The translations under genes were made by a program, and so were the position numbers. From Escherichia coli (lineage in GTDB: Bacteria; Pseudomonadota; Gammaproteobacteria; Enterobacterales; Enterobacteriaceae): a DNA stretch of 64,000 nucleotides. This document shows positions 20,121 through 64,000 of the stretch, piece by piece. Location of the stretch: the NCBI RefSeq assembly GCF_046105845.1, contig NZ_CP151004.1. One strand, given 5' to 3'. The stretch's first letter is position 1; each line of letters opens with the position of its first letter. Under the pieces are notes generated by a model, which searched no databases, was not told the origin of the DNA, and saw only the letters and a list, made by a program, of their open reading frames with translations.

Positions 20121-20227
20121 TGGTAAAAGCAAGGGGTTATAGCGGGTAAGACCGGGGATCTTAAGTCTGCGCCATCGGCAGCATCGCTCACCCAGGGAAA
20201 GGATGGCGATGCTGCATTGAAAATTAA

Positions 20228-21556: not shown

Positions 21557-21573
21557 AGTACGTCTCTTTGCGC

Positions 21574-21792
21574 TTAGATGATAAATGACAGCAGGAATGT
21601 GCCCGCCAGAGCGACGACTGAAGCGATAAATGTCGCTGTCGTATAGTATTTAAATGTTTCATTGAGCGTAGCGCCGCAATATTGCTTCACCAGCCAGAAA
21701 AGCGAGTCTGTAACGATCGTGCAGCCAATCGCACCTGAACCGATAGCAATCGCAATAATTTCCGGGCTGATGTCGGGATACAGCGGCAGCAC
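21574..21792 (-). pseudogene. dsdX: 3' remnant of D-serine permease gene (GntP family), truncated by the csc insertion
   Basis: Only a 72-aa hydrophobic C-terminal segment upstream of dsdA; the reading frame hits an in-frame TAA just upstream of 21792; full dsdX (about 445 aa) and dsdC are absent. Confidence 0.75.
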
Positions 21793-22034
21793 AATGATCC
21801 ATATTTATATTTTCTTCTCCAGGTTGGCGATGCCAGTTGGCATGTTTTACCTACTTGCCTATATGGTTACTCGTTGGCGAGAACAGAGGCGGAATTGGGC
21901 ACAATTGTCCGGGAATTATTGTTATTTTTTATTGTATTGCCGTGTCGGGTGATAGGGCGTTGAGAATATCGTTGGATCTCGCCAGTGACGTCTGTTTCTG
22001 CTACAGTGCCCGTTTTACGGCAAACGGCTTGGGT

Positions 22035-23030
22035 ATGGCTTCATTAAAGGATGTCGCACGCCTGGCGGGAGTGTCGATGATGACAGTCTCCCGGGTGATG
22101 CATAATGCAGAATCTGTGCGTCCTGCAACGCGTGACCGCGTATTGCAGGCAATCCAGACCCTGAATTATGTTCCTGATCTTTCCGCCCGTAAGATGCGCG
22201 CTCAAGGACGTAAGCCGTCGACTCTCGCCGTGCTGGCGCAGGACACTGCTACCACTCCTTTCTCTGTTGATATTCTGCTTGCCATTGAGCAAACCGCCAG
22301 CGAGTTCGGCTGGAATAGTTTTTTAATCAATATTTTTTCTGAAGATGACGCTGCCCGCGCGGCACGTCAGCTGCTTGCCCACCGTCCGGATGGCATTATC
22401 TATACTACAATGGGGCTGCGACATATCACGCTGCCTGAGTCTCTGTATGGTGAAAATATTGTATTGGCGAACTGTGTGGCGGATGACCCAGCGTTACCCA
22501 GTTATATCCCTGATGATTACACTGCACAATATGAATCAACACAGCATTTGCTCGCGGCGGGCTATCGTCAACCGTTATGCTTCTGGCTACCGGAAAGTGC
22601 GTTGGCAACAGGGTATCGTCGGCAGGGATTTGAGCAGGCCTGGCGTGATGCTGGACGAGATCTGGCTGAGGTGAAACAATTTCACATGGCAACAGGTGAT
22701 GATCACTACACCGATCTCGCAAGTTTACTCAATGACCACTTCAAATCTGGCAAACCAGATTTTGATGTTCTGATATGTGGTAACGATCGCGCAGCCTTTG
22801 TCGCTTATCAGGTTCTCCTGGCGAAGGGGGTACGTATCCCGCAGGATGTCGCCGTAATGGGCTTTGATAATCTGGTTGGCGTCGGGCATCTGTTTTTACC
22901 GCCGCTGACCACAATTCAGCTTCCACATGACATTATCGGGCGGGAAGCTGCATTGCATATTATTGAAGGTCGTGAAGGGGGAAGAGTGACGCGGATCCCT
23001 TGCCCGCTGTTGATCCGTTGTTCCACCTGA
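22035..23030 (+). CDS. cscR: LacI-family sucrose-operon repressor
   Basis: 331-aa ORF from the ATG at 22035 (MASLKDVARLAGVSMMTVSRVMHN, LacI-type HTH) with periplasmic-binding-protein-like core. Confidence 0.88.
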   Translation: MASLKDVARLAGVSMMTVSRVMHNAESVRPATRDRVLQAIQTLNYVPDLSARKMRAQGRKPSTLAVLAQDTATTPFSVDILLAIEQTASEFGWNSFLINIFSEDDAARAARQLLAHRPDGIIYTTMGLRHITLPESLYGENIVLANCVADDPALPSYIPDDYTAQYESTQHLLAAGYRQPLCFWLPESALATGYRRQGFEQAWRDAGRDLAEVKQFHMATGDDHYTDLASLLNDHFKSGKPDFDVLICGNDRAAFVAYQVLLAKGVRIPQDVAVMGFDNLVGVGHLFLPPLTTIQLPHDIIGREAALHIIEGREGGRVTRIPCPLLIRCST

Positions 23031-23037
23031 TATTATG

Positions 23038-24471
23038 TTAACCCAGTTGCCAGAGTGCTCCATGTTGCAGCACAGCCACTCCGTGGGAGGCATAGAGCGA
23101 CAGTTCCCGTTCTTCTGGCTGCGGATAGATTCGGCTACTCATCACCGTTTCCCCGTCGTTAATAAATACTTCCACGGATGATGTATCGATAAATATCCTT
23201 AGGGCGAGCGTGTCACCCTGCGGGAGGGGAATACTACGGTAGCCGTCTAAATTCTCGTGTGGGTAATATCGCCACAAAACAAGTCGCTCAGATTGGTTAT
23301 CAATATACAGCCGCATTCCAGTGCCGAGCTGTAATCCGTAATGTTCGGCATCACTGTTCTTCAGCGCCCACTGCAACTGAATCTCAACTGCTTGCGCGTT
23401 TTCCTGCAAAACATATTTATTGCTGATTGTGCGGGGAGAGATAGATTGATGCTGCTGGCGTAACGACTCAGCTTCGTGTACCGGGCGTTGTAGGAGTTTG
23501 CCATTGCTCTCTGATAGCTCGCGCGCCAGCGTCATGCAGCCTGCCCAGCCTTCACGTTTTGAGGGCATTGGCGATTCCCACATATCCATCCAGCCGATAA
23601 CAATACGCCGACCATCCTTCGCTACAAAGCTTTGTGGTGCATAAAAGTCATGCCCGTTATCAAGTTCAGTAAAATGCCCGGATTGTGCAAAAAGTCGTCC
23701 AGGCGACCAAATTCCGGGTATTACGCCACTTTGAAAGCGATTTCGATAACTGTATCCCTCGGCATTCATTCCCTGCGGGGAAAACATCAGATAATGCTGA
23801 TCGCCAAGGCTGAAAAAGTCCGGACATTCCCACATATAGCTTTCACCCGCATCAGCGTGGGCCAGTACGCGATCGAAAGTCCATTCACGCAATGAACTGC
23901 CGCGATAAAGCAGGATCTGCCCCGTGTTGCCTGGGTCTTTCGCCCCGACTACCATCCACCATGTGTCGGCTTCACGCCACACTTTAGGATCGCGGAAGTG
24001 CATGATGCCTTCTGGTGGAGTGAGGATCACACCCTGTTTCTCGAAATGAATACCATCCCGACTGGTAGCCAGACATTGTACTTCGCGAATTGCATCGTCA
24101 TTACCTGCACCATCGAGCCAGACGTGTCCGGTGTAGATAAGTGAGAGGACACCATTGTCATCGACAGCACTACCTGAAAAACACCCGTCTTTGTCATTCT
24201 CGTCTCCTGGCGCTAGCGCAATAGGCTCATGCTGCCAGTGGATCATATCGTCGCTGGTGGCATGTCCCCAGTGCATTGGCCCCCAGTGTTCGCTCATCGG
24301 GTGATGTTGATAAAACGCGTGATAACGATCGTTAAACCAGATCAGGCCGTTTGGATCGTTCATCCACCCGGCAGGAGGCGCGAGGTGAAAATGGGGATAG
24401 AAAGTGTTACCTCGGCGCTCGTGAAGTTTTGCTAGTGCGTTTTGCGCCGCATGTAATCGAGATTGCGTCAT
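23038..24471 (-). CDS. cscA: sucrose-6-phosphate hydrolase / invertase (GH32)
   Basis: ORF track 23038..24480; start placed at MTQSRLHAAQ...; GH32 motifs (WMNDPNG, FRDP, WECPD). Confidence 0.9.
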   Translation of the reverse strand: MTQSRLHAAQNALAKLHERRGNTFYPHFHLAPPAGWMNDPNGLIWFNDRYHAFYQHHPMSEHWGPMHWGHATSDDMIHWQHEPIALAPGDENDKDGCFSGSAVDDNGVLSLIYTGHVWLDGAGNDDAIREVQCLATSRDGIHFEKQGVILTPPEGIMHFRDPKVWREADTWWMVVGAKDPGNTGQILLYRGSSLREWTFDRVLAHADAGESYMWECPDFFSLGDQHYLMFSPQGMNAEGYSYRNRFQSGVIPGIWSPGRLFAQSGHFTELDNGHDFYAPQSFVAKDGRRIVIGWMDMWESPMPSKREGWAGCMTLARELSESNGKLLQRPVHEAESLRQQHQSISPRTISNKYVLQENAQAVEIQLQWALKNSDAEHYGLQLGTGMRLYIDNQSERLVLWRYYPHENLDGYRSIPLPQGDTLALRIFIDTSSVEVFINDGETVMSSRIYPQPEERELSLYASHGVAVLQHGALWQLG

Positions 24472-24505
24472 TTTTATCATCCTGGTTAAGCAAACTTGGT
24501 GAATT

Positions 24506-24581
24506 GTTAACGTTAACCTTTATAAAAATAAAGTCCCTTGCTTTCATAAATGCGATGAATATCACAAATGTTAACGTTAAC
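24506..24581. promoter_or_regulatory. cscA-cscKB divergent promoter region with two identical 12-bp palindromes (candidate CscR operators)
   Basis: GTTAACGTTAAC occurs at 24506-24517 and 24570-24581; each is a perfect palindrome. Confidence 0.55.
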
Positions 24582-24686
24582 TATGACGTTTTGTGATCGA
24601 ATATGCATGTTTTAGTAAATCCATGACGATTTTGCGAAAAAGAGGTTTATCACTATGCGTAAGTCAGATGAATTTAAGGGAAAAAA

Positions 24687-25610
24687 ATGTCAGCCAAAGT
24701 ATGGGTTTTAGGGGATGCGGTCGTAGATCTCTTGCCAGAATCAGACGGGCGGCTACTGCCTTGTCCTGGCGGTGCGCCAGCTAACGTTGCGGTGGGAATC
24801 GCCAGATTAGGCGGAATAAGTGGGTTTATAGGTCGGGTGGGGGATGATCCTTTTGGTGCGTTAATGCAAAGAACGCTGCTAACTGAGGGTGTCGATATCA
24901 CGTATCTGAAGCAAGATGAATGGCACCGGACATCCACGGTGCTTGTCGATCTGAACGATCAAGGAGAACGTTCATTTACGTTTATGGTCCGCCCCAGTGC
25001 CGATCTTTTTTTAGAGACGACAGACTTGCCCTGCTGGCGACATGGCGAATGGTTACATCTCTGTTCAATTGCGTTGTCTGCCGAGCCTTCGCGTACCAGC
25101 GCATTTACAGCGATGACGGCGATCCGGCATGCCGGAGGTTTTGTCAGCTTCGATCCCAATATTCGTGAAGATCTATGGCAAGACGAGCATTTGCTCCGCT
25201 TGTGTTTGCGGCAGGCGCTACAACTGGCGGATGTCGTCAAGCTCTCGGAAGAAGAATGGCGACTTATCAGTGGAAAAACACAGAACGATCGGGATATATG
25301 CGCCCTGGCAAAAGAGTATGAGATCGCCATGCTGTTGGTGACTAAAGGTGCAGAAGGGGTGGTGGTCTGTTATCGAGGACAAGTTCACCATTTTGCTGGA
25401 ATGTCTGTGAATTGTGTCGATAGCACGGGGGCGGGAGATGCGTTCGTTGCCGGGTTACTCACAGGTCTGTCCTCTACGGGATTATCTACAGATGAAAGAG
25501 AAATGCGACAAATTATCGATCTCGCTCAACGTTGCGGAGCGCTTGCAGTAACAGCGAAAGGGGCAATGACAGCGCTGCCATGTCGACAAGAACTGGAAAG
25601 TGAGAAGTAA
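24687..25610 (+). CDS. cscK: fructokinase (PfkB/ribokinase family)
   Basis: 307-aa ORF with PfkB signatures (GGAPANVAVG, DSTGAGDAF). Confidence 0.9.
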   Translation: MSAKVWVLGDAVVDLLPESDGRLLPCPGGAPANVAVGIARLGGISGFIGRVGDDPFGALMQRTLLTEGVDITYLKQDEWHRTSTVLVDLNDQGERSFTFMVRPSADLFLETTDLPCWRHGEWLHLCSIALSAEPSRTSAFTAMTAIRHAGGFVSFDPNIREDLWQDEHLLRLCLRQALQLADVVKLSEEEWRLISGKTQNDRDICALAKEYEIAMLLVTKGAEGVVVCYRGQVHHFAGMSVNCVDSTGAGDAFVAGLLTGLSSTGLSTDEREMRQIIDLAQRCGALAVTAKGAMTALPCRQELESEK

Positions 25611-25671
25611 ACGGCGAGGCCGCTCTTATCTCTAAATAGGACATGAATTTTTTAACGACAGGCAGGTAATT

Positions 25672-26919
25672 ATGGCACTGAATATTCCATTCAGAAATGC
25701 GTACTATCGTTTTGCATCCAGTTACTCATTTCTCTTTTTTATTTCCTGGTCGCTGTGGTGGTCGTTATACGCTATTTGGCTGAAAGGACATCTAGGATTA
25801 ACAGGGACTGAATTAGGTACACTTTATTCGGTCAACCAGTTTACCAGCATTCTATTTATGATGTTCTACGGCATCGTTCAGGATAAACTCGGTCTGAAGA
25901 AACCGCTCATCTGGTGTATGAGTTTCATTCTGGTCTTGACCGGACCGTTTATGATTTACGTTTATGAACCGTTACTGCAAAGCAATTTTTCTGTAGGTCT
26001 AATTCTGGGGGCGCTCTTTTTTGGCCTGGGGTATCTGGCGGGATGCGGTTTGCTTGACAGCTTCACTGAAAAAATGGCGCGAAATTTTCATTTCGAATAT
26101 GGAACAGCGCGCGCCTGGGGATCTTTTGGCTATGCTATTGGCGCGTTCTTTGCCGGTATATTTTTTAGTATCAGTCCCCATATCAACTTCTGGTTGGTCT
26201 CGCTATTTGGCGCTGTATTTATGATGATCAACATGCGTTTTAAAGATAAGGATCACCAGTGCATAGCGGCGGATGCGGGAGGGGTAAAAAAAGAGGATTT
26301 TATCGCAGTTTTCAAGGATCGAAACTTCTGGGTTTTTGTCATATTTATTGTGGGGACGTGGTCTTTCTATAACATTTTTGATCAACAACTCTTTCCTGTC
26401 TTTTATGCAGGTTTATTCGAATCACACGATGTAGGAACGCGCCTGTATGGTTATCTCAACTCATTCCAGGTGGTACTCGAAGCGCTGTGCATGGCGATTA
26501 TTCCTTTCTTTGTGAATCGGGTAGGGCCAAAAAATGCATTACTTATCGGTGTTGTGATTATGGCGTTGCGTATCCTTTCCTGCGCGCTGTTCGTTAACCC
26601 CTGGATTATTTCATTAGTGAAGCTGTTACATGCCATTGAGGTTCCACTTTGTGTCATATCCGTCTTCAAATACAGCGTGGCAAACTTTGATAAGCGCCTG
26701 TCGTCGACGATCTTTCTGATTGGTTTTCAAATTGCCAGTTCGCTTGGGATTGTGCTGCTTTCAACGCCGACTGGGATACTCTTTGACCACGCAGGCTACC
26801 AGACAGTTTTCTTCGCAATTTCGGGTATTGTCTGCCTGATGTTGCTATTTGGCATTTTCTTCTTGAGTAAAAAACGCGAGCAAATAGTTATGGAAACGCC
26901 TGTACCTTCAGCAATATAG
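25672..26919 (+). CDS. cscB: sucrose:H+ symporter (MFS, LacY family)
   Basis: 415-aa 12-TM ORF, LacY-like. Confidence 0.9.
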   Translation: MALNIPFRNAYYRFASSYSFLFFISWSLWWSLYAIWLKGHLGLTGTELGTLYSVNQFTSILFMMFYGIVQDKLGLKKPLIWCMSFILVLTGPFMIYVYEPLLQSNFSVGLILGALFFGLGYLAGCGLLDSFTEKMARNFHFEYGTARAWGSFGYAIGAFFAGIFFSISPHINFWLVSLFGAVFMMINMRFKDKDHQCIAADAGGVKKEDFIAVFKDRNFWVFVIFIVGTWSFYNIFDQQLFPVFYAGLFESHDVGTRLYGYLNSFQVVLEALCMAIIPFFVNRVGPKNALLIGVVIMALRILSCALFVNPWIISLVKLLHAIEVPLCVISVFKYSVANFDKRLSSTIFLIGFQIASSLGIVLLSTPTGILFDHAGYQTVFFAISGIVCLMLLFGIFFLSKKREQIVMETPVPSAI

Positions 26920-27360
26920 ACGTAAACTTTTTCCGGTTGTTGTCGATATCTCCATATCCCTCAACCGGAAAATAGTAATACAAAAATGCTTAGCCCAACT
27001 AATAATCACCTAATCCAAACGCCTCATTCATGTTCTGGTACAGTCGCTCAAATGTACTCCGGATACGCGGTTCGCTGATTTCCAGGACATTGTCGTCATT
27101 CAGCGACCTGTCCCGAGTATCACGGGCCTGCGAATTCATCAAGGAATGCATTGCAGAGTGAAGTATCGAGTCACGCCATATTTCGCTATCAGGATTCTGT
27201 ATGATGGTTACATCGCCCGGCCCAGGGCTGTTTAGTCATCAGCGCTTTCTGACAGTGCTGAGATTTCAACCTGTTGCAGTAAAAATGAGTAGATATAGGG
27301 CAAGTGTGCTGCCAAACCCATCTTTTACGGGGTGAAGGTAGATATTGTTAGAAGGGTATC

Positions 27361-27375
27361 TGGTGTCCCCTGCAG
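27361..27375 (-). repeat. attR core: duplicated 3' end of tRNA-Arg (argW)
   Basis: TGGTGTCCCCTGCAG is the reverse complement of the argW acceptor 3' end CTGCAGGGGACACCA (recalled tRNA sequence). Confidence 0.7.
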
Positions 27376-27448
27376 ACATCTACTTGACGCGGCAGGGGAT
27401 TGATTGGAATGGTGTTTTTTGGATGTGAGAAATATTTTACCCGCTATT

Positions 27449-27649
27449 TTACCCATTGGCGCGGCTTAAGAGCTTATTTTTGAATTCACAATGGTCACGA
27501 TATAACCATCTTGCTCGCCCGTGGATAACTTTAGCTTTTGGCAGGTCGCCGGACTTAATCCGGTCATAGATGAAGGTTTTACCGAAGCCAGTATCGGCCA
27601 TGATGAATTTCAAATCAACCAGTGAATCAGGTTGTAGTTCGTGTTGCAT
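27449..27649 (-). CDS. torI: excisionase / recombination directionality factor (TorI family, winged helix)
   Basis: 66-aa product MQHELQPDSLVDLKFIMADTGFGKTFIYDRIKSGDLPKAKVIHGRARWLYRDHCEFKNKLLSRANG matches recalled K-12 KplE1 TorI; the ORF track gives a longer 27449..27664 version. Confidence 0.85.
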   Translation of the reverse strand: MQHELQPDSLVDLKFIMADTGFGKTFIYDRIKSGDLPKAKVIHGRARWLYRDHCEFKNKLLSRANG

Positions 27650-27706
27650 GAGTGCTATCTCCAAATAGGGAATCGAACCTGCAAATCAGGCAATAAAAAA
27701 CCGCCA

Positions 27707-27874
27707 TCAGGCGGCTTGATGTTCTTTCAGTTCTTCAATTCGAATATTGGTTACGTCTGCATGTGCTATCTGCGCCCATATCATCCAGTGGTCATAGCAG
27801 TCGTTGATGTTCTCTGCTTCGATAACTCTGTTGAATGGTTCTCCATTCCATTCACCTGTGACTCGGAAGTGCAT
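27707..27874 (-). CDS. small hypothetical prophage protein (55 aa)
   Basis: ORF MHFRVTGEWNGEPFNRVIEAENINDCYDHWMIWAQIAHADVTNIRIEELKEHQAA, below the ORF-track cut-off; followed on the minus strand by hairpin CCGCC-TGAT-GGCGG plus T-run. Confidence 0.4.
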   Translation of the reverse strand: MHFRVTGEWNGEPFNRVIEAENINDCYDHWMIWAQIAHADVTNIRIEELKEHQAA

Positions 27875-27962
27875 TTATCATCTCCATAAAACAAAACCCT
27901 CCGTAGCGAGTTCAGATAAAAGAAATCCCCGCGAATGCGAGGATTGTTATGTAATATTTGGT

Positions 27963-28244
27963 TTAATCATCTATATGTTTTGTACAGAGAGGGCAAGTAT
28001 CGTTTCCACCGTACTCGTGATAATAATTTTGCACGGTAGCAGTCATTTCTCGCACATTGCAGAATGGGGATTTGTCTTCATTAGACTTATAAACCTTCAT
28101 GGAATATTTGTATGCCGACTCTATATCTATACCTTCATCTACATAAACACCTTCGTGATGTCTGCATGGAGACAAGACACCGGATCTGCACAACATTGAT
28201 AACGCCCAATCTTTTTGCTCAGACTCTAACTCATTGATACTCAT
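27963..28244 (-). CDS. hypothetical Cys-rich protein (93 aa)
   Basis: ORF with AAGGAG RBS 8 nt upstream; five Cys including a CPLC pair; AT-rich; about 200 bp untranslated upstream. Confidence 0.5.
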   Translation of the reverse strand: MSINELESEQKDWALSMLCRSGVLSPCRHHEGVYVDEGIDIESAYKYSMKVYKSNEDKSPFCNVREMTATVQNYYHEYGGNDTCPLCTKHIDD

Positions 28245-28446
28245 TTATAAACTCCTTGCAATGTATGTCGTTTCAGCTAAACGGTATCAGCAATGTTTAT
28301 GTAAAGAAACAGTAAGATAATACTCAACCCGATGTTTGAGTACGGTCATCATCTGACACTACAGACTCTGGCATCGCTGTGAAGACGACGCGAAATTCAG
28401 CATTTTCACAAGCGTTATTTTTTACAAACCCGTATTCCTGCTCATA

Positions 28447-29070
28447 TCACTCTCCTTTGATGCGAATACCAGCAGTGCGCTCGGCTTCACTTTGTTCCCA
28501 AAACCACTTGTGAAGCTCCATAAGCTTTTCGTCAATCGGTGCATATTTGCGATTAAAGTAGGCCTGAGCATCTTTCTCAGATTCGTCCGGCAATTCGCCT
28601 GGGCCAAACAGTGTGTTATAAATCCATGCCAGTCCGCTTTTAGCGTCGCCAGTTGCCTGCCATTCGATAATCGCAGCCTGCATGACCAGAATGTTTTTCC
28701 CGATTAACAGGTCCAGTTCTTTGAACCGGTTGCGGATGTATGCATTCTCGCTTTGTAATTTTGCGTTGCGCTTCTCTGCGGCTTCCAGCTCAACACGCAG
28801 TTTCCCTACCGCTAGCGCAATTTCCTCGTTCTCCTGGTCGCGGCGTTTGATGTATTGCTGGTTTCTTTCCCGTTCATCCAGTAGTGCCAGCACGGTTTCT
28901 GGTCCGGCCAGAAATTTGAAGGCGTTGAGCGCATCAATATCCACACCGTAATCTTTAAGTTCCTGTTCACTTAACAAATCATCATCAGCTGGCAACATTA
29001 ACAGGCGTTCCATTGCTGGAATTGCACGTTCCGCCACCTCACGCAGTGCCTGGTAATTAATTTCGCTCAC
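28447..29070 (-). CDS. hypothetical prophage early protein, Ea22-like coiled-coil
   Basis: 207-aa ORF in the PL-distal region; central coiled-coil (ALAVGKLRVELEAAEKRNAKLQSEN); family assignment is by resemblance only. Confidence 0.5.
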   Translation of the reverse strand: MSEINYQALREVAERAIPAMERLLMLPADDDLLSEQELKDYGVDIDALNAFKFLAGPETVLALLDERERNQQYIKRRDQENEEIALAVGKLRVELEAAEKRNAKLQSENAYIRNRFKELDLLIGKNILVMQAAIIEWQATGDAKSGLAWIYNTLFGPGELPDESEKDAQAYFNRKYAPIDEKLMELHKWFWEQSEAERTAGIRIKGE

Positions 29071-29516
29071 TGGTTGCCTCCTTTGCGAAGCTGGGCAGCA
29101 AAGTCACGGATAGTGTCATCAAGGTCTGGGCACAACAGATGGTCAGCAAACATCTCTACCCCCTGCGCCCGTACTTCAGCCAGGAAAGCATCGGTGGTTG
29201 GGGTTTCAGTAACATCATCTTCCCATTCGCCAAACTCCTCACGACAAAAGTCATTAAATTCCTTCTCAGATTGCTTAAGCGAGGTATTTTCTGCAGCCAT
29301 CTTCGCGCATTTAGCCTCAAGGTTATCAATCGTGATTCCAGCAGAACGACACTCCCGCAACGCCGTTTCCAGTTTTGATTCAAGCTCACCGAACTTACGC
29401 ACCAGATATTCAGCGTTTGTTTCGTTAACCTTTAAATCTCGTGGAAAGCATTTACCTTTCAGAAAACCATCCATCTCAATTAGTGACATTAGTTTCATTT
29501 CTTCCCACTCCGCCAC
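29067..29516 (-). CDS. hypothetical prophage early protein (Ea22-like N-terminal type)
   Basis: 149-aa ORF overlapping the next gene by 4 bp (ATGA). Confidence 0.5.
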
Positions 29517-29655
29517 ATAGCATTCAGATATTTGTTGTCATTAACAGAACCGAAACTATTTCTCTTAAGTAATTCCTCTCTCGATGGCATTGGCTTTACG
29601 CGTTGGCGAATAATCATTTCTGCCGGAAGAATGCCGGGATTGTATGCAAGTCCTC

Positions 29656-29946
29656 TCATGATTTACTCTCCACGAACTGGTCAACAGCCATGCTAAGTGA
29701 CACACCTAAAGTCTCGATATGTTGCTGAATATCCTGTAGCGTCTGCGCCTGAGATAACAGGATTTCACGGTTGCATAACTCTTTAGCCAGATGCTCAAAC
29801 TTGCTGTAATAACCGATACGACTTAGTGTTTCTTTGCCTGCATTCTCGCCTTCTTTGATAATTCCTCTTTCGCTAAGAATCAGATCGTGTTTGGTTCCGG
29901 TAATAACGTATTTTCCGAGGTCGATGTTTAGCTTCATTGTTTTCAT
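29656..29946 (-). CDS. hypothetical early protein (96 aa), in the position of P22 abc genes
   Basis: ORF track 29656..30099; start placed at the internal ATG with GAGGAA RBS ([17 protein letters not shown]...); functional assignment is by synteny with erf only. Confidence 0.45.
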
Positions 29947-29956
29947 TGTTAATTCC

Positions 29957-30253
29957 TCAGTCATTACTGATAGCGCCATAGCGTGAGCGGTAATTACGCA
30001 GGCGCGGGTCGATATATTCAGGGAAGTGGGTATATGTGGCTTTGCGGAATGGTCGGATTGATGTCTGGTAAATTCGCTCGCGTTCTTCTTTCTCTGCAAG
30101 CCATATACAATGGCGAAATTCCTTTTCCTCTTTCGTTTCCTGCGGTAGCGACATTATCCGGTCGTAGTTTTTCCTGAATTTATCCAGCACCTCCGATACG
30201 GAATTGCCGGAACAGCGGCGCGGGTCATCCGCACCATACAGAGGCGCTGGCAT
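29957..30253 (-). CDS. hypothetical early protein (98 aa), in the position of P22 abc genes
   Basis: ORF in the PL operon downstream of erf. Confidence 0.45.
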   Translation of the reverse strand: MPAPLYGADDPRRCSGNSVSEVLDKFRKNYDRIMSLPQETKEEKEFRHCIWLAEKEERERIYQTSIRPFRKATYTHFPEYIDPRLRNYRSRYGAISND

Positions 30254-30276
30254 AATGGAATCCTTATGTTGCTAAT

Positions 30277-30660
30277 TTAGAAGGGAATTGAATCGTCGTA
30301 TTCAGGATGATTTTGATGATTGCTACTTTGTTGCTGTTGGCTGTTTCCTGAAGTTGCAAATCCAATCTTTGCATTCAGTAATTCAAGAGTGATTGATTGA
30401 CCATTTTGCCCCTGATAAACATCAACCCTGATGTTTTCTCCGGTAATTTCTACAATGCCACCTTCAACAAGAACACTACGGTAGTAATCCGCTTGCGCTC
30501 CCGGCTTGGCAAATACAACGGCGCTGTAGTTTGTCCATTCTTTCTTTTTTGTCTGGCGATCGTAATACTGAACGCCAGCACGGATGTTGAATCCGATATT
30601 TTCCCCGGCCTGAAACTCTCTTGCGGGCTTGTTTAGTCTTACAGTAATCGAATGTGCCAT
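30277..30660 (-). CDS. hypothetical early protein (127 aa), possibly OB-fold-like
   Basis: Start ATG overlaps the erf stop (TAATG coupling); product MAHSITVRLNKPAREFQAGENIGFNIRAGVQYYDRQTKKKEW... Confidence 0.5.
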   Translation of the reverse strand: MAHSITVRLNKPAREFQAGENIGFNIRAGVQYYDRQTKKKEWTNYSAVVFAKPGAQADYYRSVLVEGGIVEITGENIRVDVYQGQNGQSITLELLNAKIGFATSGNSQQQQSSNHQNHPEYDDSIPF

Positions 30661-31265
30661 TAAGCAGCCGCTCCTTCTAATTCGTCTCGTCTGATGTTGT
30701 AAACGTCCTGCGCTTTGTGCTGCTCCGGTGTGCCTTCGAGCATCTTCCACGCTTTGGCGAACGCCTGTTTAAGCTCTTCTACGGTGTTTTTCTGCAATGC
30801 TGCGTCAGTGAATGCTTTTAGAACCTGTTCAGATGTAGGTGATGGTTTTGATTGCTTTGCTGCTGCGTTCTGCTGATGTTTATGCTCGTCGGTATCTGCA
30901 TCTTTCGCATCATCAATGCCGAACAAACCATTGAGGCAATACTTGCGTGCATAAGAGCTTGTAGCTCCAGTAACTTGTGCAGAATCCATTCCTTTCTTGC
31001 TTTCTTCCTCTCGTGCAAGGGCGGTTGCTGTATGACTGTTTTCGCCATCAGTAATAGTTGCTGTTGCTTTCACGTAATACCGATCACCAATCAACACAAC
31101 TTCATCGCTGATTGATAAAAACAGGCCATTCAGTAACGGCTTAACGCCTTCAAGAATGTCTTCGCAGCTTCTGTATTTATATTTACCGAATGAGTTGTAC
31201 TGATTCTTTGGCGCGTTCAGATTCTCCTGAATGGCTGCCAGTCTTGCGTAAAATTCTTTGCTCAT
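30660..31265 (-). CDS. erf: ssDNA-annealing recombinase (Erf family)
   Basis: Product MSKEFYARLAAIQENLNAPKNQYNSFGKYKYRSCEDILEGVKPLL... closely matches recalled P22 Erf; ORF track 30660..31295 with an upstream alternative start. Confidence 0.85.
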   Translation of the reverse strand: MSKEFYARLAAIQENLNAPKNQYNSFGKYKYRSCEDILEGVKPLLNGLFLSISDEVVLIGDRYYVKATATITDGENSHTATALAREEESKKGMDSAQVTGATSSYARKYCLNGLFGIDDAKDADTDEHKHQQNAAAKQSKPSPTSEQVLKAFTDAALQKNTVEELKQAFAKAWKMLEGTPEQHKAQDVYNIRRDELEGAAA

Positions 31266-31366
31266 ATGTTTGTTCTCAGAATGGACACGGCCCAAGGAAA
31301 TAACGCTGATTTAATACTTCGACTCGGGACAAATTAAGGCATACCCGCATTCCTTCGCGGTCACCA

Positions 31367-31525
31367 TTATGGCGATACCAGAGAGCTTTCTGCGTGTACA
31401 TGCGTCTCTGTAACTTGCTCTCCTTCACTGTGGTTGCAAGTGACATGAATATCTCCTTCGTTACCGATTAAATCTTTCATCTGACGAATGAATTCTTCGT
31501 CTGACCAGTTATCTGTAAAACTCAT
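31367..31525 (-). CDS. small protein in the position of P22 arf (52 aa)
   Basis: ORF MSFTDNWSDEEFIRQMKDLIGNEGDIHVTCNHSEG... whose ATG overlaps the kil stop (ATGA); assignment by synteny. Confidence 0.35.
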   Translation of the reverse strand: MSFTDNWSDEEFIRQMKDLIGNEGDIHVTCNHSEGEQVTETHVHAESSLVSP

Positions 31526-31674
31526 TTCCTGCGATACCACGGAAGGTTGATAGCTGATTTCATCGCTTTATTTGCTTCAAGCCACATTTTGGAATCACCA
31601 ATAAATCTGGCTATTACTGCTTTGTTTTGTGCCGCACGAAGCATCTGGTGATTAATGGCTATTTCATTTCGCAT
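31522..31674 (-). CDS. kil: Kil-like host cell-division inhibitor (50 aa)
   Basis: ORF MRNEIAINHQMLRAAQNKAVIARFIGDSKMWLEANKAMKSAINLPWYRRK; the FIGD-KM...EA...A-K pattern resembles recalled lambda Kil; lies in the c3-kil-erf order. Confidence 0.45.
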   Translation of the reverse strand: MRNEIAINHQMLRAAQNKAVIARFIGDSKMWLEANKAMKSAINLPWYRRK

Positions 31675-31793
31675 AACGCCTCCAGTTGTTTCTTTGCTGC
31701 TCTGATTAATTGTTTAACTCGGCGTGATAATTCAGATTCGTGCGGGTAGAAAGCGGACATGACGCCGCTACCCGCGAGCTGAAAGTGCATCAT
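31659..31793 (-). CDS. CIII-like protease inhibitor (P22 c3 position)
   Basis: Short ORF MMHFQLAGSGVMSAFYPHESELSRRVKQLIRAAKKQLEALCEMK, resembling the lambda CIII N-terminus (MQYAIAGWPVAGCPSESLLERI...); its 3' end overlaps the kil start. Confidence 0.5.
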   Translation of the reverse strand: MMHFQLAGSGVMSAFYPHESELSRRVKQLIRAAKKQLEALCEMK

Positions 31794-32019
31794 GGGTAAC
31801 TCCTTATATTTGATTGCATAACGAAAACGCCTCAAGTGAAGCGTTATTGGTATGCATATAAAAAAGCCCTCACACTGGAGGGCAAAGAAGATTTCCAATA
31901 ATCAGAACAAGTCGTCTCCTGTTTAGTTACGAGCGACATTGCTCCGTGTATTCACTCGTTGTAATGAATACACAGTGCAGTGTTTATTCTGTTGTTTATG
32001 CCAAAAATAAAGTCCACCG

Positions 32020-57369: not shown

Positions 57370-57699
57370 CTATTTAATTCTCTTTTCAATGGCTGCAATT
57401 ATTGCTTTTCCTGATGTTTCAGGAGATTTTGTAGCCATATAAGACGAAAAAATCATGTCGGTCATTCTTTCATAACTTACTATTTCCCACTTAGCCAATG
57501 CATGGGACAGTTTGTAGTTGTCATCAGTTAGTGCCCTTATGGAATTTTTTAAGTGTTTATTCTCTTCTGTTAATCGCGCAATTTTTGTATCAATTTCATG
57601 TGAGCGATCTAATTCCTTAACCTGTTTCTTGAGGGCAGCTAACCCTGCATATAGTACGCAACAGGATATCCCAAGAGCGAGTACGACTATTTCTAACAC
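57370..57699 (-). CDS. hypothetical membrane-anchored coiled-coil protein (109 aa)
   Basis: N-terminal TM helix (MLEIVVLALGISCCVLYAGLAAL) plus coiled-coil; convergent with the ejection genes; low GC. Confidence 0.55.
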   Translation of the reverse strand: MLEIVVLALGISCCVLYAGLAALKKQVKELDRSHEIDTKIARLTEENKHLKNSIRALTDDNYKLSHALAKWEIVSYERMTDMIFSSYMATKSPETSGKAIIAAIEKRIK

Positions 57700-57817
57700 A
57701 CCAACCTCCTTAGTTTTTCGCAGGATACCATGAAAAAAGTAAACATCTTTTGCCTACTTCACATTTGAATGGTTTGTCATTAGGATGTTTCCGGTTTTTT
57801 CAAATATGGAAATTGAT

Positions 57818-58237
57818 ATGAAGAGGATTATCGGCGTTGTTGCTGGCGCTATATTGTTATCTGGGTGCGCAACTATTGTTGGTGACGAAACACAGCTCGT
57901 GCAAGTGAACAGCAATCCTTCCGGTGCGAGCTTTAAAGTAAAAGACGAATCAGGCGTGATTGTTGCGCAAGGCAAGACCCCGCAAGGAGTAACTCTTGCC
58001 AAGTCAGATGGGAGTTATTTTGGCAAAAAGAGCTACCAGATCACTATGGAAAAGGATGGGTACGAACCAGTTACCCTGCCAATCAAAGCCAATGCTAATG
58101 GTTGGTATATTGGTGGAAACCTTGTGTTTGGTGGGTTAATTGGTTGGCTTGCTGTAGATCCTTTTAATGGTGGGATGTATACCTTGAAGCCAAAAGAGGC
58201 AAACGCATCTCTTATACCATCAACAAAGCAAGACTAA
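57818..58237 (+). CDS. predicted lipoprotein with PEGA-like beta domain and Gly-zipper C-terminus (140 aa)
   Basis: Signal peptide and lipobox MKRIIGVVAGAILLSGC; PSGASFKVKDESGVIVAQGKTPQGVTL...KDGYEPVTLPI resembles a PEGA domain; ORF track offers a longer 57785 start. Confidence 0.6.
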   Translation: MKRIIGVVAGAILLSGCATIVGDETQLVQVNSNPSGASFKVKDESGVIVAQGKTPQGVTLAKSDGSYFGKKSYQITMEKDGYEPVTLPIKANANGWYIGGNLVFGGLIGWLAVDPFNGGMYTLKPKEANASLIPSTKQD

Positions 58238-58245: not shown

Positions 58246-58268
58246 ACCCACCTTCAGGTGGGTTTTTT
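58246..58268 (+). terminator. terminator after the lipoprotein gene, overlapping the mnt 3' end
   Basis: ACCCACC-TTCA-GGTGGGT hairpin followed by TTTTTT. Confidence 0.65.
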
Positions 58269-58505
58269 GTACAAATCCTTCAGCGTATCAAACACCATCT
58301 TCTTAACAAGCTCTGACTGCTCATCAGCGAGTCGTTCTGCATCGTCGCGATATCCAGTCACAGGCGATGGTTTTGATAGAGCATCTTGGACGATTTGTAA
58401 CAACTCGGAGTTCATTGATCTCCCATTCGCCTCCGCCCTGAATTTTAATTTCTCCCTTACTTCCATAGGCATACGGAAGTTAAAGTGCGGATCATCTCTA
58501 GCCAT
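58254..58505 (-). CDS. mnt: Mnt repressor (ribbon-helix-helix), immI
   Basis: 83-aa ORF MARDDPHFNFRMPMEVREKLKFRAEANGRSMNSELLQIVQDALSKP... near-identical to recalled P22 Mnt. Confidence 0.9.
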   Translation of the reverse strand: MARDDPHFNFRMPMEVREKLKFRAEANGRSMNSELLQIVQDALSKPSPVTGYRDDAERLADEQSELVKKMVFDTLKDLYKKPT

Positions 58506-58527
58506 GCCATCACTCCAAGTTAGTGTA

Positions 58528-58579
58528 TTGACATGATAGAAGCACTCTACTATATTCTCAATAGGTCCACCGTGGACCT
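58528..58579. promoter_or_regulatory. Pant promoter with Oarc and Omnt operators
   Basis: TTGACA (58528-58533), 17-bp spacer, TATATT (58551-58556); Oarc ATGATAGAAGCACTCTACTAT (58533-58553) as recalled for P22; Omnt palindrome AGGTCCACCGTGGACCT (58563-58579). Confidence 0.8.
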
Positions 58580-58595
58580 ATATTGTGAGGTGAAT

Positions 58596-58757
58596 ATGAA
58601 AGGAATGAGCAAGATGCCGCAGTTCAATTTGCGGTGGCCTAAAGAAGTATTGGATTTGGTACGCAAGGTGGCGGAAGAGAATGGTCGGTCTGTTAACTCT
58701 GAGATTTATCAGAGAGTAATGGAAAGCTTTAAGAAGGAAGGGCGCATTGGCGCGTAA
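58596..58757 (+). CDS. arc: Arc repressor (ribbon-helix-helix), immI
   Basis: 53-aa product [53 protein letters not shown] matches recalled P22 Arc. Confidence 0.9.
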
Positions 58758-58825
58758 AGTTGAAGCCCCAACTGCGGGAACAGTCAGGGCTTCGGTATCA
58801 ACAAATCGGATTAGGAAATATTGAC

Positions 58826-59704
58826 ATGAAAAGTATAGCAAAGGCACAAAACGATTTCACCATCTTCAAATTCGGCGACAGTGAAATCCGCGTCATCAAC
58901 AAATGCGGTGAGCCGTGGTTTGTAGCAAAAGATGTTTGTGATGCTTTAACCCTGACTAACTCACGCAAGGCGCTTACTGCACTTGATGACGATGAAAAGG
59001 GAGTAACTTTAAGTTACACCCTTGGTGGTGAGCAGAATCTAAGCATTGTTAGCGAATCAGGTATGTATACATTGGTTCTGCGCTGCCGCGATGCTGTCAA
59101 TAAAGGTTCGGTCCCGCACAAATTCCGCAAGTGGGTAACAGCAGAAGTTCTACCTTCAATTCGCAAACATGGCGAGTATGTGAAAGGCAAGAAAACCACT
59201 GTTGAGGAAAGAACGCCGCTACGCGATGCAGTAAACATGCTGGTAGGAAAGAAAGGACTTCGCTATGACGATGCATACAATATGGTTCATCAGCGTTTTG
59301 GTATTGACAGCATTGATGAACTTTCAATTGAACAAATCCCGCTGGCCGTAGAGTACATCCACAGGGTAGTGCTTGAAGGCGAGTTTATCGGCAAACAAGA
59401 GAAGAAAGCAAACGAGCTTTCTGCAAAAGAAGCAAACAGCCTTGTATGGCTATGGGATTATGCTAACCGTTCACAGGCATTATTCCGCGAACTGTATCCG
59501 GCATTAAAACAAATTCAATCGAACTATTCCGGCAGATGCTACGACTACGGTCATGAATTCTCGTATGTTATCGGAATGGCGAGAGACGTTTTAATCAATC
59601 ACACACGAGATGTTGATATCAATGAGCCAGACGGACCAGCGAATCTTTCCGCATGGATGAGACTTAAGAATAAAGAATTACCTCCTTCAGTACATAACTA
59701 CTGA
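58826..59704 (+). CDS. ant: antirepressor Ant
   Basis: About 292-aa ORF from [41 protein letters not shown], immediately downstream of arc. Confidence 0.8.
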
Positions 59705-59804
59705 CAGATAACCAACGCGACAACCCAGCTTCGGCTGGGTTTTTTTATGCCCAAAATTCATCGTAGCCATGCTTCGGTGATTCCTTGTATCTGGAGCAAA
59801 TTAA

Positions 59805-62144
59805 ATGACAGATTCAATAAATGCCAATGTTGTGGTAAGCATGCCTTCGCAACTCTTCACTATGGCTCGTTCTTTTAAAGCCGTAGCCAATGGCAAAATT
59901 TATATCGGTAAAATTGACACGGACCCGGTAAATCCTGAAAACCAGATTCAGGTTTATGTGGAGAACGAAGACGGTTCTCACGTTCCTGTTTCGCAACCAA
60001 TAATCATTAACGCTGCTGGATATCCGGTATATAACGGACAGATTGCCAAATTCGTTACCGTGCAAGGCCATTCTATGGCTGTTTATGATGCGTATGGTTC
60101 GCAGCAGTTCTATTTTCCGAATGTGTTGAAGTACGACCCTGATCAGTTTTCCTTGTGGGCAAAGGGAAATTTCGAAATATCAGAATACAGTCGAATAATT
60201 GATGGCGATTTTGCGTCTGGATATACTATTACCAATAGAAAACAGGTCCTTAAATACACTGATGGACTTTATTACCAATGGCTTGGTTCCCTTCCGAAAA
60301 CTGTAGCGCCAACAGAAAATCCAAATCTTAATAGTCAATGGTTATGCGTCATGGATGGTTCTAATTTCAATGATGCGATCATGTGCAGTCGCTACATTCA
60401 TAGCGGAGTTGACTGCGCATCGGTAATAAATAAATTACAAATATTATCAGAATATAAAAGGGTTCCTCTAGATTTTAGAGGTATAGATGTGATCTCGTTT
60501 AGTGGTAGTGTGCAAATTGGCGACTGGTTTCATTGGATTGGTGCAGGGAAGTCAAGTACTACTATCAGACCAATCTCACTAACAAAGCAAGACGTTGAGA
60601 ATAATGGCTTTGGCTATTACTCTTGGTTCATCCGTAAGAACCCTGACAAGGATCTATATTTTGCGATGCTGCAGGATATTTGTTTTGATGGACAATACCA
60701 AGACGGTTACGAAATAAATAACATTGCGCCGCAGAAGATTATTCGCGCATTCTGCTGGCATTTCAATAACGGTGCCATTGGTCGCAATATTACTGCTTTA
60801 AGATGTCATTTCAAAAACTGCCCACATGAAGCATGGGAAGGATACACAACTAATGGTGGAATGATTGATGGTATTAATTATTTGTATTGTTCATCAGAGG
60901 GAACAGACCCAATGCTTACCGCTGTTGGATTCAATGCATTTAAGTGTATGAATGGCTCTATTGATTCACCTGGCGAATACGGTACATATACCATTAAAAA
61001 CATCTTCAGTTTCGGCAACACTGCTTTCGGCCATCGTACATTGAATGACTTTAAGAGAGGTTGCGAAAATTGGGTTATCGATGCATGCCAAACATTCGAC
61101 ATGAACGATTGCCATCACTCTACGGATGGTTCACGCCGTGGTGTATTCCTTGCTGGCAATATCGGAATTCAAACAGGAAAATCAAAAGCAACTAAAAATT
61201 TTCTTGAAATTCAAGGAGAGAATATTGATGTTCTTGGTGGAAAGTATGTTGCTGCAGCAACCAGTGTGGCTGGCTTGGCTGGTATATTCGTGACTAATTA
61301 CTCGTATCCTTCTGAGTCTACAGACTTCCAATCACAGCACATTCGAATTAAAAATGTCTATGTCGAAAGGGTAAACAATAATGCGGTACGCATTGTCAAT
61401 GGGTATGACATCAACGTTGAAGATATCACGGCTGTTAGCTGTAACGGTGTTGGTGTATCATTCGAATTTGTGCCTGGACTAATTAGCGGAATTGACAATC
61501 AAGAGATAAAACCAAGATTTAACTCTGTAGGTAAGATCATAACTAGTTCGTGTTCAGGTGAAGTGCTTGTAGACAATAACCAAGACGTATTTATCACTGC
61601 CAATAGCCAGAATACAGGAGGTGGTTTTCGTGTTGGAAGAAGTGATGCTGTCCATAGTACTAACCCTCTACCGATGCGTTCCATAGCTGGTCATATTCTA
61701 GCTAATCAGGATAGATTTTTTCAGTCTGTTATATCTATTGCGCCAGAGAAAACAGATGCAACTACAAAGCCTGTAGGTACGCCTTATGCATTCACTCTTA
61801 ACGATAAGAATACCGCATCAGTACAGAGTTTATTAGTGGCAACACTTCGAGTAGCTCAACGAAGCGCTGTCTATGTAAGACTATGGACGTTATCAGAAAC
61901 ATCAATATCATCGGCGGTCATTTTTCGCGAATTGGATTCTACAGGTAATTCGTTATCTAATACTGCAATAAAATTATTATCTGATAATTCGTGGCTTGAG
62001 CGTCAGGCAATATATCATGTTAAAAGATCAGAATGTGTAGCTGTAGAGGTTTTTCTTGCTCCTGCTTGTGATGAACGCATGGATATTTCCTTGACAGGAA
62101 CAACTAGTTTTGCTGATGTTAGAGTAAGTAATTATCCAATCTGA
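59805..62144 (+). CDS. tailspike protein (P22 gp9-type head-binding N-terminus plus divergent receptor-binding domain)
   Basis: 779-aa ORF; the first ~110 aa ([47 protein letters not shown]...[10 protein letters not shown]) match the recalled P22 tailspike N-terminus, the remainder does not. Confidence 0.85.
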
Positions 62145-62152
62145 AAAGGCGA

Positions 62153-62180
62153 GTCCACGCCCGCCTTTTTATTACCAACA
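62153..62180. terminator. bidirectional terminator between tailspike and acyltransferase genes
   Basis: GGCG-n6-CGCC hairpin flanked by an A-run and a T-run. Confidence 0.5.
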
Positions 62181-62203
62181 ACCATCTCATTTGTGAGGTG
62201 GTT

Positions 62204-63382
62204 TTACTGAAGTTTTCTTCTTGTGTATGTTAGTACATTAAATTTTTTAAACTTACTACACGGTGTCTCAATATATCTAAAACATAGCAATGATATAAGC
62301 GTGATAAACCCAGAGAGGATTATAATAATAGCTGAAAATACAAGGCTGTTAATTTGATTAACATAGCTAACCGGAAGTATTATTTTAAATGTTATAAAAA
62401 GTATAATGCCATGTAGAAGATACATGCTATATGTAGCTTCTCCAAAAACTTGACAGGTTTTTATCTTAAGAACTCCAAAAATATCGCATCCATTTGATAT
62501 CAGAATAAATGCAATACCACAGAGTGATATTGTTATTGGATTGTAAGGATTTGGAATTAAAAAACAAGTTACACATAAGATAACGATGACGAATAAGCTT
62601 GATAATATTTTATTGAAAGGCAAGCCGTTAGGCAGTTTGTGATTTATTTTTGCTGCCAGATAACCAAAAACAAATGATAAAATATGTATTTTTAATGATG
62701 GATAGAAAATAAAAGCAAATACACTCGCAATACTAAGAATTGTGTAAGTATTAAATTTGTCTCTTCTCATTATAAAAGCCATAAAAGGAAGAGATAAATA
62801 AAAAAACCATTCATAAACAAGTGACCACGGAACTCCGGCCATGATAAGCGACGTCTTGTGAAGACCGTTAACATCAGGCATTCCAAGGAAAGAAAAAGGA
62901 ACCCATCTCGCCATAGATATTATGAGATTGGCAATTCCTGTGTTAATTTTCCAATCAGAAACATAGAACACAATTATGAATAGTAGAGATAACGAAACCA
63001 GATACATAGGTGTTAGTCTCATTATTCTTGACCAAAATAAATCTTCCCAATTTACTGATTTATTCGAAATCAATTTCCCGAAGAACAAGAAGCCTGTAAT
63101 CATAAAAAAGAAAATAACAGCTATTTTTCCAATATTAGTATAAAATAACGAATCAGGATCAGACCAAACCCCAGTATGTATGTATTGCCACCAGAAACTG
63201 GAATGATGAAGGAAAACCATTAAAGCAAGAAATCCTCTAAGCCCATCAATTGATTCACTCCTTCCTTTGATAGGTGATAAGTGTGTTTCTGTGACAAATA
63301 TTCTTGCAACCGAAAGTGAAGTAATCACCGATAAAGAAGCAATTAAAAAGCCATTAAATCCGTCAAACATAGAAATCTCCAT
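62204..63382 (-). CDS. oac: integral-membrane acyltransferase (acyltransferase-3 family), probable O-antigen acetylase
   Basis: 392-aa polytopic ORF; very AT-rich; position between tailspike and integrase as recalled for Sf6 oac. Confidence 0.75.
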   Translation of the reverse strand: MEISMFDGFNGFLIASLSVITSLSVARIFVTETHLSPIKGRSESIDGLRGFLALMVFLHHSSFWWQYIHTGVWSDPDSLFYTNIGKIAVIFFFMITGFLFFGKLISNKSVNWEDLFWSRIMRLTPMYLVSLSLLFIIVFYVSDWKINTGIANLIISMARWVPFSFLGMPDVNGLHKTSLIMAGVPWSLVYEWFFYLSLPFMAFIMRRDKFNTYTILSIASVFAFIFYPSLKIHILSFVFGYLAAKINHKLPNGLPFNKILSSLFVIVILCVTCFLIPNPYNPITISLCGIAFILISNGCDIFGVLKIKTCQVFGEATYSMYLLHGIILFITFKIILPVSYVNQINSLVFSAIIIILSGFITLISLLCFRYIETPCSKFKKFNVLTYTRRKLQ

Positions 63383-63698
63383 TACCCCTGTGTTTTTTGT
63401 ACAATCAAAGATTTTGTGGGCACTAAGAAAATTAGTGTATATAAACCATGCTTAAATTGCATAAATATTGAATATGGCATCGATGGCTCACTATCCTTAC
63501 GTTATCAAAAAAATGTGTATACCGTGATTATGCTTGATAATTATTTGACCGCAGTGTTGTATAGTCTACTGCTTTCTAATCTACAAGCATCATGGCATAA
63601 ATCCAGTATCTAGAACTAATAAGATTAACAATTGGAGATCACAAGTGATTGGCTTAGTTCACTGAGCCATGCATTGTTACCCTCTGATTAAAGATTAA

Positions 63699-64000
63699 TT
63701 ACTCAGCCTTCCCATCAAGCCAGTCCGCCCACCACTGCATCATTTCTCTGCGCTTATCGAGATACTGAGCATGGTTGTAAATCCCGCGCACAGATCCGCC
63801 GTTGGCATGTGCCAGTTGCACTTCAATAGCATCAGCAGGCCATTCGTGCTCGTTCATAATCGTGCTGAATTCATGCCTGAATCCGTGACCGCTTTCCAGA
63901 CCTTCATAGCCGATTTGTTTGATCACAAGCAATACCGCGTTCTCGCAGATTGGCTTCTTCTTATCGTTACGCCCGGAAAAAACAAACTCTGATACTGGTT
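63699..64000 (-). CDS. intS: tyrosine integrase, C-terminal catalytic part (5' end outside window)
   Basis: Frame is open to the window edge; C-terminal catalytic motifs HGFRHEF and GIYNHAQY; at the prophage end opposite torI. Confidence 0.8.
   Translation of the reverse strand, partial: PVSEFVFSGRNDKKKPICENAVLLVIKQIGYEGLESGHGFRHEFSTIMNEHEWPADAIEVQLAHANGGSVRGIYNHAQYLDKRREMMQWWADWLDGKAE

Follow-up and report, generated by a model that had tools for sequence, protein, structure and literature searches.

A chimeric tailspike and a convergent acyltransferase gene at the right end of a P22-like prophage of Escherichia coli: a probable O-antigen recognition and serotype-conversion locus

What surface structure does a P22-like tailspike recognise when its receptor-binding part is foreign to the phage genus, and is the same structure modified in the lysogen by the acyltransferase gene that faces it? 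This question is raised by a 64,000-nucleotide stretch of Escherichia coli DNA (contig NZ_CP151004.1 of assembly GCF_046105845.1; hereafter the window, meaning the whole stretch analysed), in which an HK620/Sf6-like (Lederbergvirus) prophage, situated in the csc-dsdA region of the chromosome, is present with its right end. An initial annotation had proposed that a tailspike gene and an acyltransferase gene near the end of the window give the phage a new receptor specificity and the lysogen a new serotype. Both open reading frames were found where that annotation had placed them (Table 1). On analogy with characterised phages, we consider it likely that this is a serotype-converting P22-like prophage, which carries an exchanged spike for O-antigen together with its own O-antigen acetylase hindering that same spike.

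The tailspike is chimeric, with an anchor shared across the genus and a foreign receptor-binding module from about residue 116 to 134 onward. Pfam Head_binding (PF09008) spans residues 4-114 (E = 4e-65), and matches to the Sf6 and P22 tailspikes in the PDB are confined to residues 1-126 (E = 1e-64 to 1e-50), the entries matched by the anchor including 7sg7 (E = 2e-64), 2vky and 1lkt (E = 2e-45). At the nucleotide level the gene is 90-96% identical to those of HK620, Sf6, CUS-3 and other phages, and this identity ends at nucleotide 345 (residue 115). The first 341-345 nucleotides were matched by about 30 phages and by 1,148 of 5,426 complete E. coli genomes, with nothing beyond. Homology of another origin begins shortly afterwards: BLASTP alignments with spikes of siphoviruses, T7-like and T1-like phages start at residue 134, and part of a Tail_spike_N module of the TSP1/Gp66 type (PF18668, E = 3e-5) is recognisable there. 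The initial view that a P22-type head-binding N-terminus was kept and the remainder had diverged is thus borne out, as is the remark that the 779-residue product is longer than the P22 tailspike (667 residues in the PDB).

Nucleotide homology with the backbone picks up again at position 63698, at the int stop codon. Since identity breaks at nucleotide 345 of the spike gene and returns at this position, a block of about 3.55 kb has been exchanged between two conserved anchors; it comprises the receptor-binding part of the spike, a terminator, the acyltransferase gene and the region upstream of the latter. No nucleotide match to either the receptor-binding part or the acyltransferase gene was obtained in phages or, in near or distant search mode, in the 5,426 complete E. 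coli genomes. The phage backbone has a G+C content of 0.45-0.51, the spike gene one of about 0.40 and the acyltransferase gene one of 0.29-0.35 (0.32 overall), the last in agreement with the very AT-rich, opposite-strand gene described initially. A genus-level anchor combined with a swapped receptor-binding domain is the published pattern in Lederbergvirus (PMC10408124; PMC4159516), and the block found here fits it.

The receptor-binding module is one of a small family, so far uncharacterised, whose members also occur on T7-like, T1-like and lambda-like tails. In a collection of 5.8 billion proteins, the spike fell into a cluster with 99% identity whose 78 members come from E. coli and E. albertii, one further record being labelled Shigella flexneri, and no relative beyond this cluster exceeded 58% identity. 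An exhaustive phmmer search of 1.84 billion representatives returned 65 clusters at E <= 0.001, of which 25 reached E <= 1e-30, and in species-representative genomes only two identical remnant loci of Xenorhabdus were matched. Among phage records, tblastn found just four full-length relatives of the module (47-53% identity): the Enterobacter Kayfunaviruses vB_VIPECLMC06 and HHH, and phages TR3 and ZL19, the latter of the Drexlerviridae (Braunvirinae). These phages and the siphovirus-type prophages of Enterobacter and E. coli that carry the module are 41-60% identical to the window spike across the helix and the C-terminal domain and share its NDCHHSTDG motif. They differ from it in having their own virion-suited N-terminal anchors, and a modifier gene follows the spike only in the temperate ones.

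The fold of the module was predicted with AlphaFold2 on a spike fragment (monomer, 37-sequence alignment; predicted local distance difference test, pLDDT, 91.3; predicted template modelling score, pTM, 0.85). The model is nearly all beta and contains the right-handed parallel beta-helix that the initial annotation had expected, followed by a beta-sandwich that is the most variable part among the relatives. Foldseek ranked CBA120 TSP4, TSP2 and TSP3 and the K2 depolymerases highest for the helix, at 8-14% identity and template modelling scores of 0.25-0.4, and a library of viral structures held nothing closer. Searches of PDB chains with either the single sequence or the family profile gave no sequence match to the helix, the profile matches being confined to the N-terminal adaptor of the relatives, outside the helix. 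A well-characterised tailspike of matching sequence, which would have spoken against a new specificity, was therefore absent from the PDB, Foldseek, profile and viral-structure results. Because the solved helices (CBA120 TSP2/3/4, Det7, HK620, K5 lyase, the Klebsiella K1 and K2 depolymerases and AlgE4 epimerase) show 8-14% identity and no sequence-detectable relation to this one, their specificity and chemistry are not transferable to it. On the analogy of all characterised spikes of this design, the helix would bind and cleave a specific polysaccharide of the host surface, most likely O-antigen, and so bring the virion to the outer membrane.

One rung of the helix is a candidate active site. 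In the family alignment A1, D, C, the first H, S, D and G of the NDCHHSTDG core (residues 434-442) are invariant (columns D320, C321, H322, S324, D326 and G327, to which 115 is added for full-length numbering), and the remaining positions are nearly invariant. Neighbouring rungs carry several invariant acidic residues, and judging from conservation these and the core motif are candidate catalytic residues. Mannuronan epimerases have the catalytic motif D-P-H-(D/E). The idea that D-C-H-H is likewise an epimerase or lyase motif was set aside as a conjecture, the profile search having given no alignment with AlgE or a lyase. The beta-helix is nearest in shape to uronate epimerases and lyases, but that the module is an O-antigen or capsule depolymerase of a new enzymatic class, with a D-C-H-H rung comparable to D-P-H-(D/E), appears doubtful.

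The convergent gene encodes an AT3-only (acyltransferase-3) membrane protein, as had been proposed for its family and location. Pfam Acyl_transf_3 (a 326-position model) covers residues 44-361 (E = 2e-28), and PHROG 3333, annotated as O-acetyltransferase, was matched at E = 1e-52; the PDB contained no sequence relative. A second ATG, at 63370, is preceded by GGAG at a better spacing (6 nucleotides), so the product is likely to have 388 residues, which is the length of most database entries and cluster members. The AlphaFold model of this 388-residue form (pLDDT 92.3, pTM 0.91) shows 11 long helices, with neither an SGNH nor any other extra domain, in agreement with an AT3-only architecture and with the 11 transmembrane segments predicted for OacB (PMC8952252). 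The gene had been described as positioned like oac of Sf6, and this holds, the order gene 14 - oac - int of Sf6 being the same. In sequence, OacB of Sf101 is the closest characterised relative and the closest phage relative (40% identity over 95% of the length), whereas Oac of Sf6 aligns at about 30% identity over a fragment of 107 residues only.

Mutagenesis of OacB has identified seven critical residues (PMC8952252). Six of these (R47, H58, W71, F98, R116 and R119) are kept as R49, H60, W73, F100, R119 and R122, and the seventh, S146, aligns to Gly149, a variable position. The R/K-X10-H, FFxISG-type and RxxR motifs, by which functional AT3 carbohydrate acetyltransferases are defined (PMC7448272), can all be located: R49-X10-H60 lies in the first core helix, and its His is invariant in alignments A3 and A4; FFFMITG at residues 91-97 retains the conserved F and G, with Thr replacing Ser; and R119-I-M-R122 aligns with R73/R76 of Oac and R116/R119 of OacB. 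In all, 38 positions are invariant across the 61-sequence acyltransferase alignment. Given the full-length reading frame, the kept motifs and the confident model, the acyltransferase looks intact and functional in the window. By analogy with its characterised relatives, it would O-acetylate O-antigen in the lysogen.

Alleles from other strains bear on a different explanation, namely that the acyltransferase is decaying, non-functional cargo. In locus L008, whose spike is 99.4% identical to that of the window, the gene (8058-9233) shows a +1 slip in a T5 (A5) run and a -1 slip in an A7 (T7) run, with three stop codons; these tracts correspond to positions 62647-62651 and 62800-62806 of the window. 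A truncated form of 247 residues (P0177), which fits the same +1 slip, occurs in several accessions, on contigs of up to 783 kb. Such alleles may reflect decay, slip-strand on/off switching or, in the case of L008, a sequencing error. For the window itself decay seems very improbable, as the frame is full length and 99.7% identical to the copy in L007, all family-invariant residues are kept, the model is confident and most cluster members have 388 residues. A frameshift, which the initial annotation had named as a possible objection, is thus found in other strains and not in the window copy.

The case for O-antigen as the target of this spike family rests mainly on the neighbourhood of related spikes. 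Of 13 prophage loci that carry a related spike, 11 have a convergent O-antigen modifier directly 3' of the spike gene, with a hairpin between the two. The modifier is an AT3 protein of one of two classes or gtrABC, on podovirus and siphovirus backbones alike, and in most of the modifier-bearing loci the tail genes are of siphovirus type (phrog_469, J-like, NlpC_P60) and not of P22 type. Class A is found in the window, L007, L008, L002 (a prophage of Enterobacter hormaechei) and L003/L004 (a metagenomic prophage beside thrS), its members being 65-72% identical to each other and 40-44% to OacB. Class B is found in L013 and L017/L018 (an E. coli prophage), with 84.5% identity between members and, in full-length alignment, 26-28% identity to Oac of Sf6. 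The gtrC-gtrB-gtrA genes occupy the slot in L009-L012 and L020-L022. Two prophage exceptions are without a modifier: L019, which is P22-like and has its spike abutting the host gene glnS, and the Xenorhabdus remnants L005/L006. The lytic carriers (Kayfunavirus and Drexlerviridae) also have no modifier downstream. The window spike is 59-60% identical to spikes linked to class A, 55-57% to those linked to gtr genes and 58% to a lytic Kayfunavirus fibre. Thus, the slot is conserved and its contents have been exchanged among related prophages.

The same survey could be read to mean that the two genes stand side by side but have no target in common, the slot being a permissive site for cargo and the AT3 protein a source of antigenic variation or of defence against other phages, which would benefit the host and leave the spike of its own phage unaffected. 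Modifier class and spike lineage are indeed shuffled, the spacers between the genes are non-homologous, L019 and the Xenorhabdus copies do without a modifier, and in Kapi1 the genes at this position did not account for O-antigen modification (PMC8787464). However, the 11 occupied loci hold O-antigen modifiers specifically and not varied cargo, the nearest relatives of the window spike are carriers of the same AT3 class, at 65-67% identity, and self-exclusion has experimental precedents in Sf6, BTP1 and phiV10; we therefore regard a slot without a common target as rather improbable. The firm claim that spike and modifier are co-inherited as one unit was also rejected, since their identity matrices co-vary weakly and the spacers are non-homologous. 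It is similarly unlikely that the spike and a cognate class-A AT3 protein form a 'receptor plus anti-receptor' cassette moving between podovirus and siphovirus backbones in Escherichia and Enterobacter.

Some of the surveyed loci showed further features. The two Xenorhabdus hominickii contigs (L005/L006) carry identical anchor-less spike relatives of 590 residues (45% identity), flanked by integrase fragments and small open reading frames resembling insertion sequences, and look like duplicated prophage remnants. In L012 (5803-8021) two open reading frames, of 545 and 177 residues, make up the gtr-linked spike relative, the first part being 55% identical and the last 44%, which suggests a frameshift, a nonsense mutation or a recombinant C-terminus. 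Beside the spike and class-A gene of the Enterobacter prophage, L002 (12993-15730) has genes for a Cap4_nuclease-domain protein and for AAA_15/AAA_21 ATPases, possibly anti-phage defence cargo at the prophage end.

The most serious competitor to O-antigen is a different target, such as a capsule or some other acidic glycan. The spike and the acyltransferase might both act on capsule, O-antigen capsule, colanic acid or enterobacterial common antigen, with the helix perhaps a lyase and not a hydrolase. CUS-3, also P22-like, has a capsule-specific endosialidase on the same anchor, AT3 proteins acylate glycans other than lipopolysaccharide as well (PMC9558356), and the shape of the helix resembles epimerases and lyases. 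On the other hand, when beta-helices are only about 10% identical their ranking by fold cannot tell the chemistry, and the profile search did not connect the helix with any lyase by sequence. Among characterised AT3 proteins, those most closely related to this one are O-antigen acetylases, and the same slot in related prophages holds gtrABC, an annotated O-antigen conversion module. A target other than O-antigen is accordingly considered unlikely.

O-antigen conversion is also the reading suggested by comparison with known phages, in which the order of spike, bidirectional terminator, acyltransferase and int recurs in Sf6 and Sf101. Sf101, likewise a Lederbergvirus, has a convergent AT3-only gene directly after the spike (orf15, oacB as orf16, then int) and 91% nucleotide identity over the first ~345 nucleotides of the spike gene; it differs in an unrelated receptor-binding part and in a small open reading frame between oacB and int that the window lacks. 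In Sf6 the layout (gene 14, for the endorhamnosidase, then terminator, oac, putative promoter and int, with attP beyond int) is identical to that of the window and the virion module is about 96% identical in nucleotides, but the spike helix is a distant structural match (Foldseek E ~1e-5, 11% identity). P22 shares the anchor domain, an upstream immI region (mnt-arc-ant) and the logic of a spike (gp9) followed by an O-antigen modifier. It differs in having a glucosylation operon, gtrABC, in place of an acyltransferase, in spike length and in an unrelated helix sequence; in the siphovirus-borne relatives of the window spike, gtrCBA fills the slot as gtrABC does after gp9.

The intergenic regions are arranged accordingly in several respects. 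The bidirectional terminator folds at -13.0 kcal/mol (+ strand) or -13.4 kcal/mol (- strand), and none of 200 shuffled sequences folded as well. The annotated Sf6 terminator sits at the equivalent place between the spike gene and oac, and an equivalent hairpin was found in all related loci. The modifier lies directly after the spike and beside int, has low G+C content and has its own terminator, as is characteristic of serotype-conversion cassettes of temperate phages.

By this analogy, the acyltransferase would be expressed from the prophage, take acetyl groups from acetyl-CoA in the cytoplasm and pass them through the inner membrane to the O-antigen repeat, which would change the serotype. 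The acetylated O-antigen would then hinder the spikes of the same or similar phages and cause superinfection exclusion, as in Sf6, BTP1 and phiV10. In Sf6 and BTP1, the phage's own O-acetylation is known to hinder its own spike, and the O-acetylase of phiV10 modifies the O157 antigen (PMC9558356).

Several observations weigh against this interpretation. The link between the spike and O-antigen is drawn from analogy and gene neighbourhood, and in that neighbourhood spike type and modifier type co-vary weakly: the class-B genes, for all their similarity, adjoin spikes that are only 47% identical. At 40% identity to OacB, substrate and positional specificity are not transferable; OacB itself acts on the S. 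flexneri O-antigen by 3/4-O-acetylation of RhaIII and 6-O-acetylation of GlcNAc. The circulation of frameshifted alleles in other strains argues against universal strong selection on the gene. No significant acyltransferase promoter was found in its upstream region, the 9/12 consensus match at 63568-63540 being at chance level relative to shuffled sequence. As far as computation reaches, the initial annotation is confirmed in what it observed and supported in how it interpreted the locus.

Table 1. Features of the tailspike-acyltransferase locus and its borders (positions in the window)
Feature	Position	Strand	Remarks
Intrinsic terminator, 3' of ant and 5' of the tailspike gene	59722..59741	+	8-bp stem with 5 GC pairs, then T7 run
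Tailspike gene (779 residues)	59805..62144	+	GGAG 8 nucleotides 5' of ATG
Head_binding (virion anchor) domain, residues 1-115	59805..60149	+	Conserved part of the backbone
Exchanged block of 3.55 kb: spike receptor-binding part, terminator, acyltransferase gene with its upstream region	~60150..63697	.	No nucleotide match; G+C 0.32-0.40 versus 0.45 in backbone
Partial Tail_spike_N (TSP1/Gp66-type) module, residues 131-173	60195..60323	+	Pfam PF18668, E = 3e-5
Right-handed parallel beta-helix, residues ~205-630, presumed glycan-binding/cleaving domain	60417..61694	+	
Motif at residues 434-444, candidate active-site rung	61104..61136	+	NDCHHSTDG core
C-terminal beta-sandwich domain, residues ~648-775	61746..62129	+	AlphaFold2 strands 533-660 in modelled-fragment numbering
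Bidirectional intrinsic terminator common to both convergent genes	62142..62171	.	A-run, 10-bp stem, T-run
AT3-only membrane acyltransferase gene (392-residue open reading frame)	62204..63382	-	Pfam PF01757, PHROG 3333
AT-rich region 5' of the acyltransferase gene, presumed lysogen-active promoter	63383..63698	-	Putative oac promoter of Sf6 annotated at equivalent position
3' end of prophage integrase gene (IntS/HK620 type), truncated by window end	63699..64000	-	95-97% nucleotide identity to int of HK620, HK633, CUS-3 and others

Positions 20000-32000 of the window match the csc-dsdA chromosomal region of E. coli, and the HK620/Sf6-like prophage, with a virion module about 96% identical in nucleotides, fills the window from about 27.4 kb on. 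A 71-residue AlpA/Xis-like open reading frame (27449-27664, - strand) marks its left end just past the csc genes. The spike gene stands at the end of the virion module, after immI and ant and before the conversion and integration genes. On its 5' side are found a DNA-transfer gene, two small genes without annotated function and a P22-like immI region. The latter is intact (58254-59704; mnt-like, arc-like and the antirepressor gene ant) and lies directly 5' of the spike gene, as in P22. The two small genes encode a 109-residue protein (phrog_8100; 57370-57699, - strand) and a 150-residue protein (phrog_6823; 57785-58237, + strand) with a lipoprotein-like signal sequence, MKRIIGVVAGAILLSGC; both are unassigned in function, and they occupy the place where P22-like phages hold exclusion or cargo genes. 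The rfb region is absent from the window.

At the other side, the int stop codon is at 63699 and the gene runs past the end of the window. Tandem prophages, suspected because int adjoins the end of the spike locus, were rejected, since attP lies beyond int in Sf6 and HK620. Sf6 reportedly integrates at argW. The same site is used by Kapi1 (PMC8787464). No tRNA gene was found anywhere in the 64-kb window; if the prophage is integrated at argW, the intact copy of that tRNA gene has to be outside the window, on the far side of int.

The locus extends the paradigm of Sf6, Sf101 and P22 and leaves current understanding unchanged; it is a probable further example of the known serotype-converting P22-like prophage, with a spike whose receptor-binding family is small and uncharacterised. 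If the proposed interpretation is true, receptor specificity and serotype conversion would be combined in E. coli and E. albertii in a pair not described before, and the spike domain might find use as a depolymerase or as a reagent specific for a serogroup. The acyltransferase would then explain an O-acetyl variant encoded outside the O-antigen gene cluster, with a bearing on serotyping, vaccine antigens and the host range of phages in therapy. A modest general point is that four virion types use the module, that only its temperate carriers add an O-antigen modifier, and that the slot has been refilled with different modifiers.

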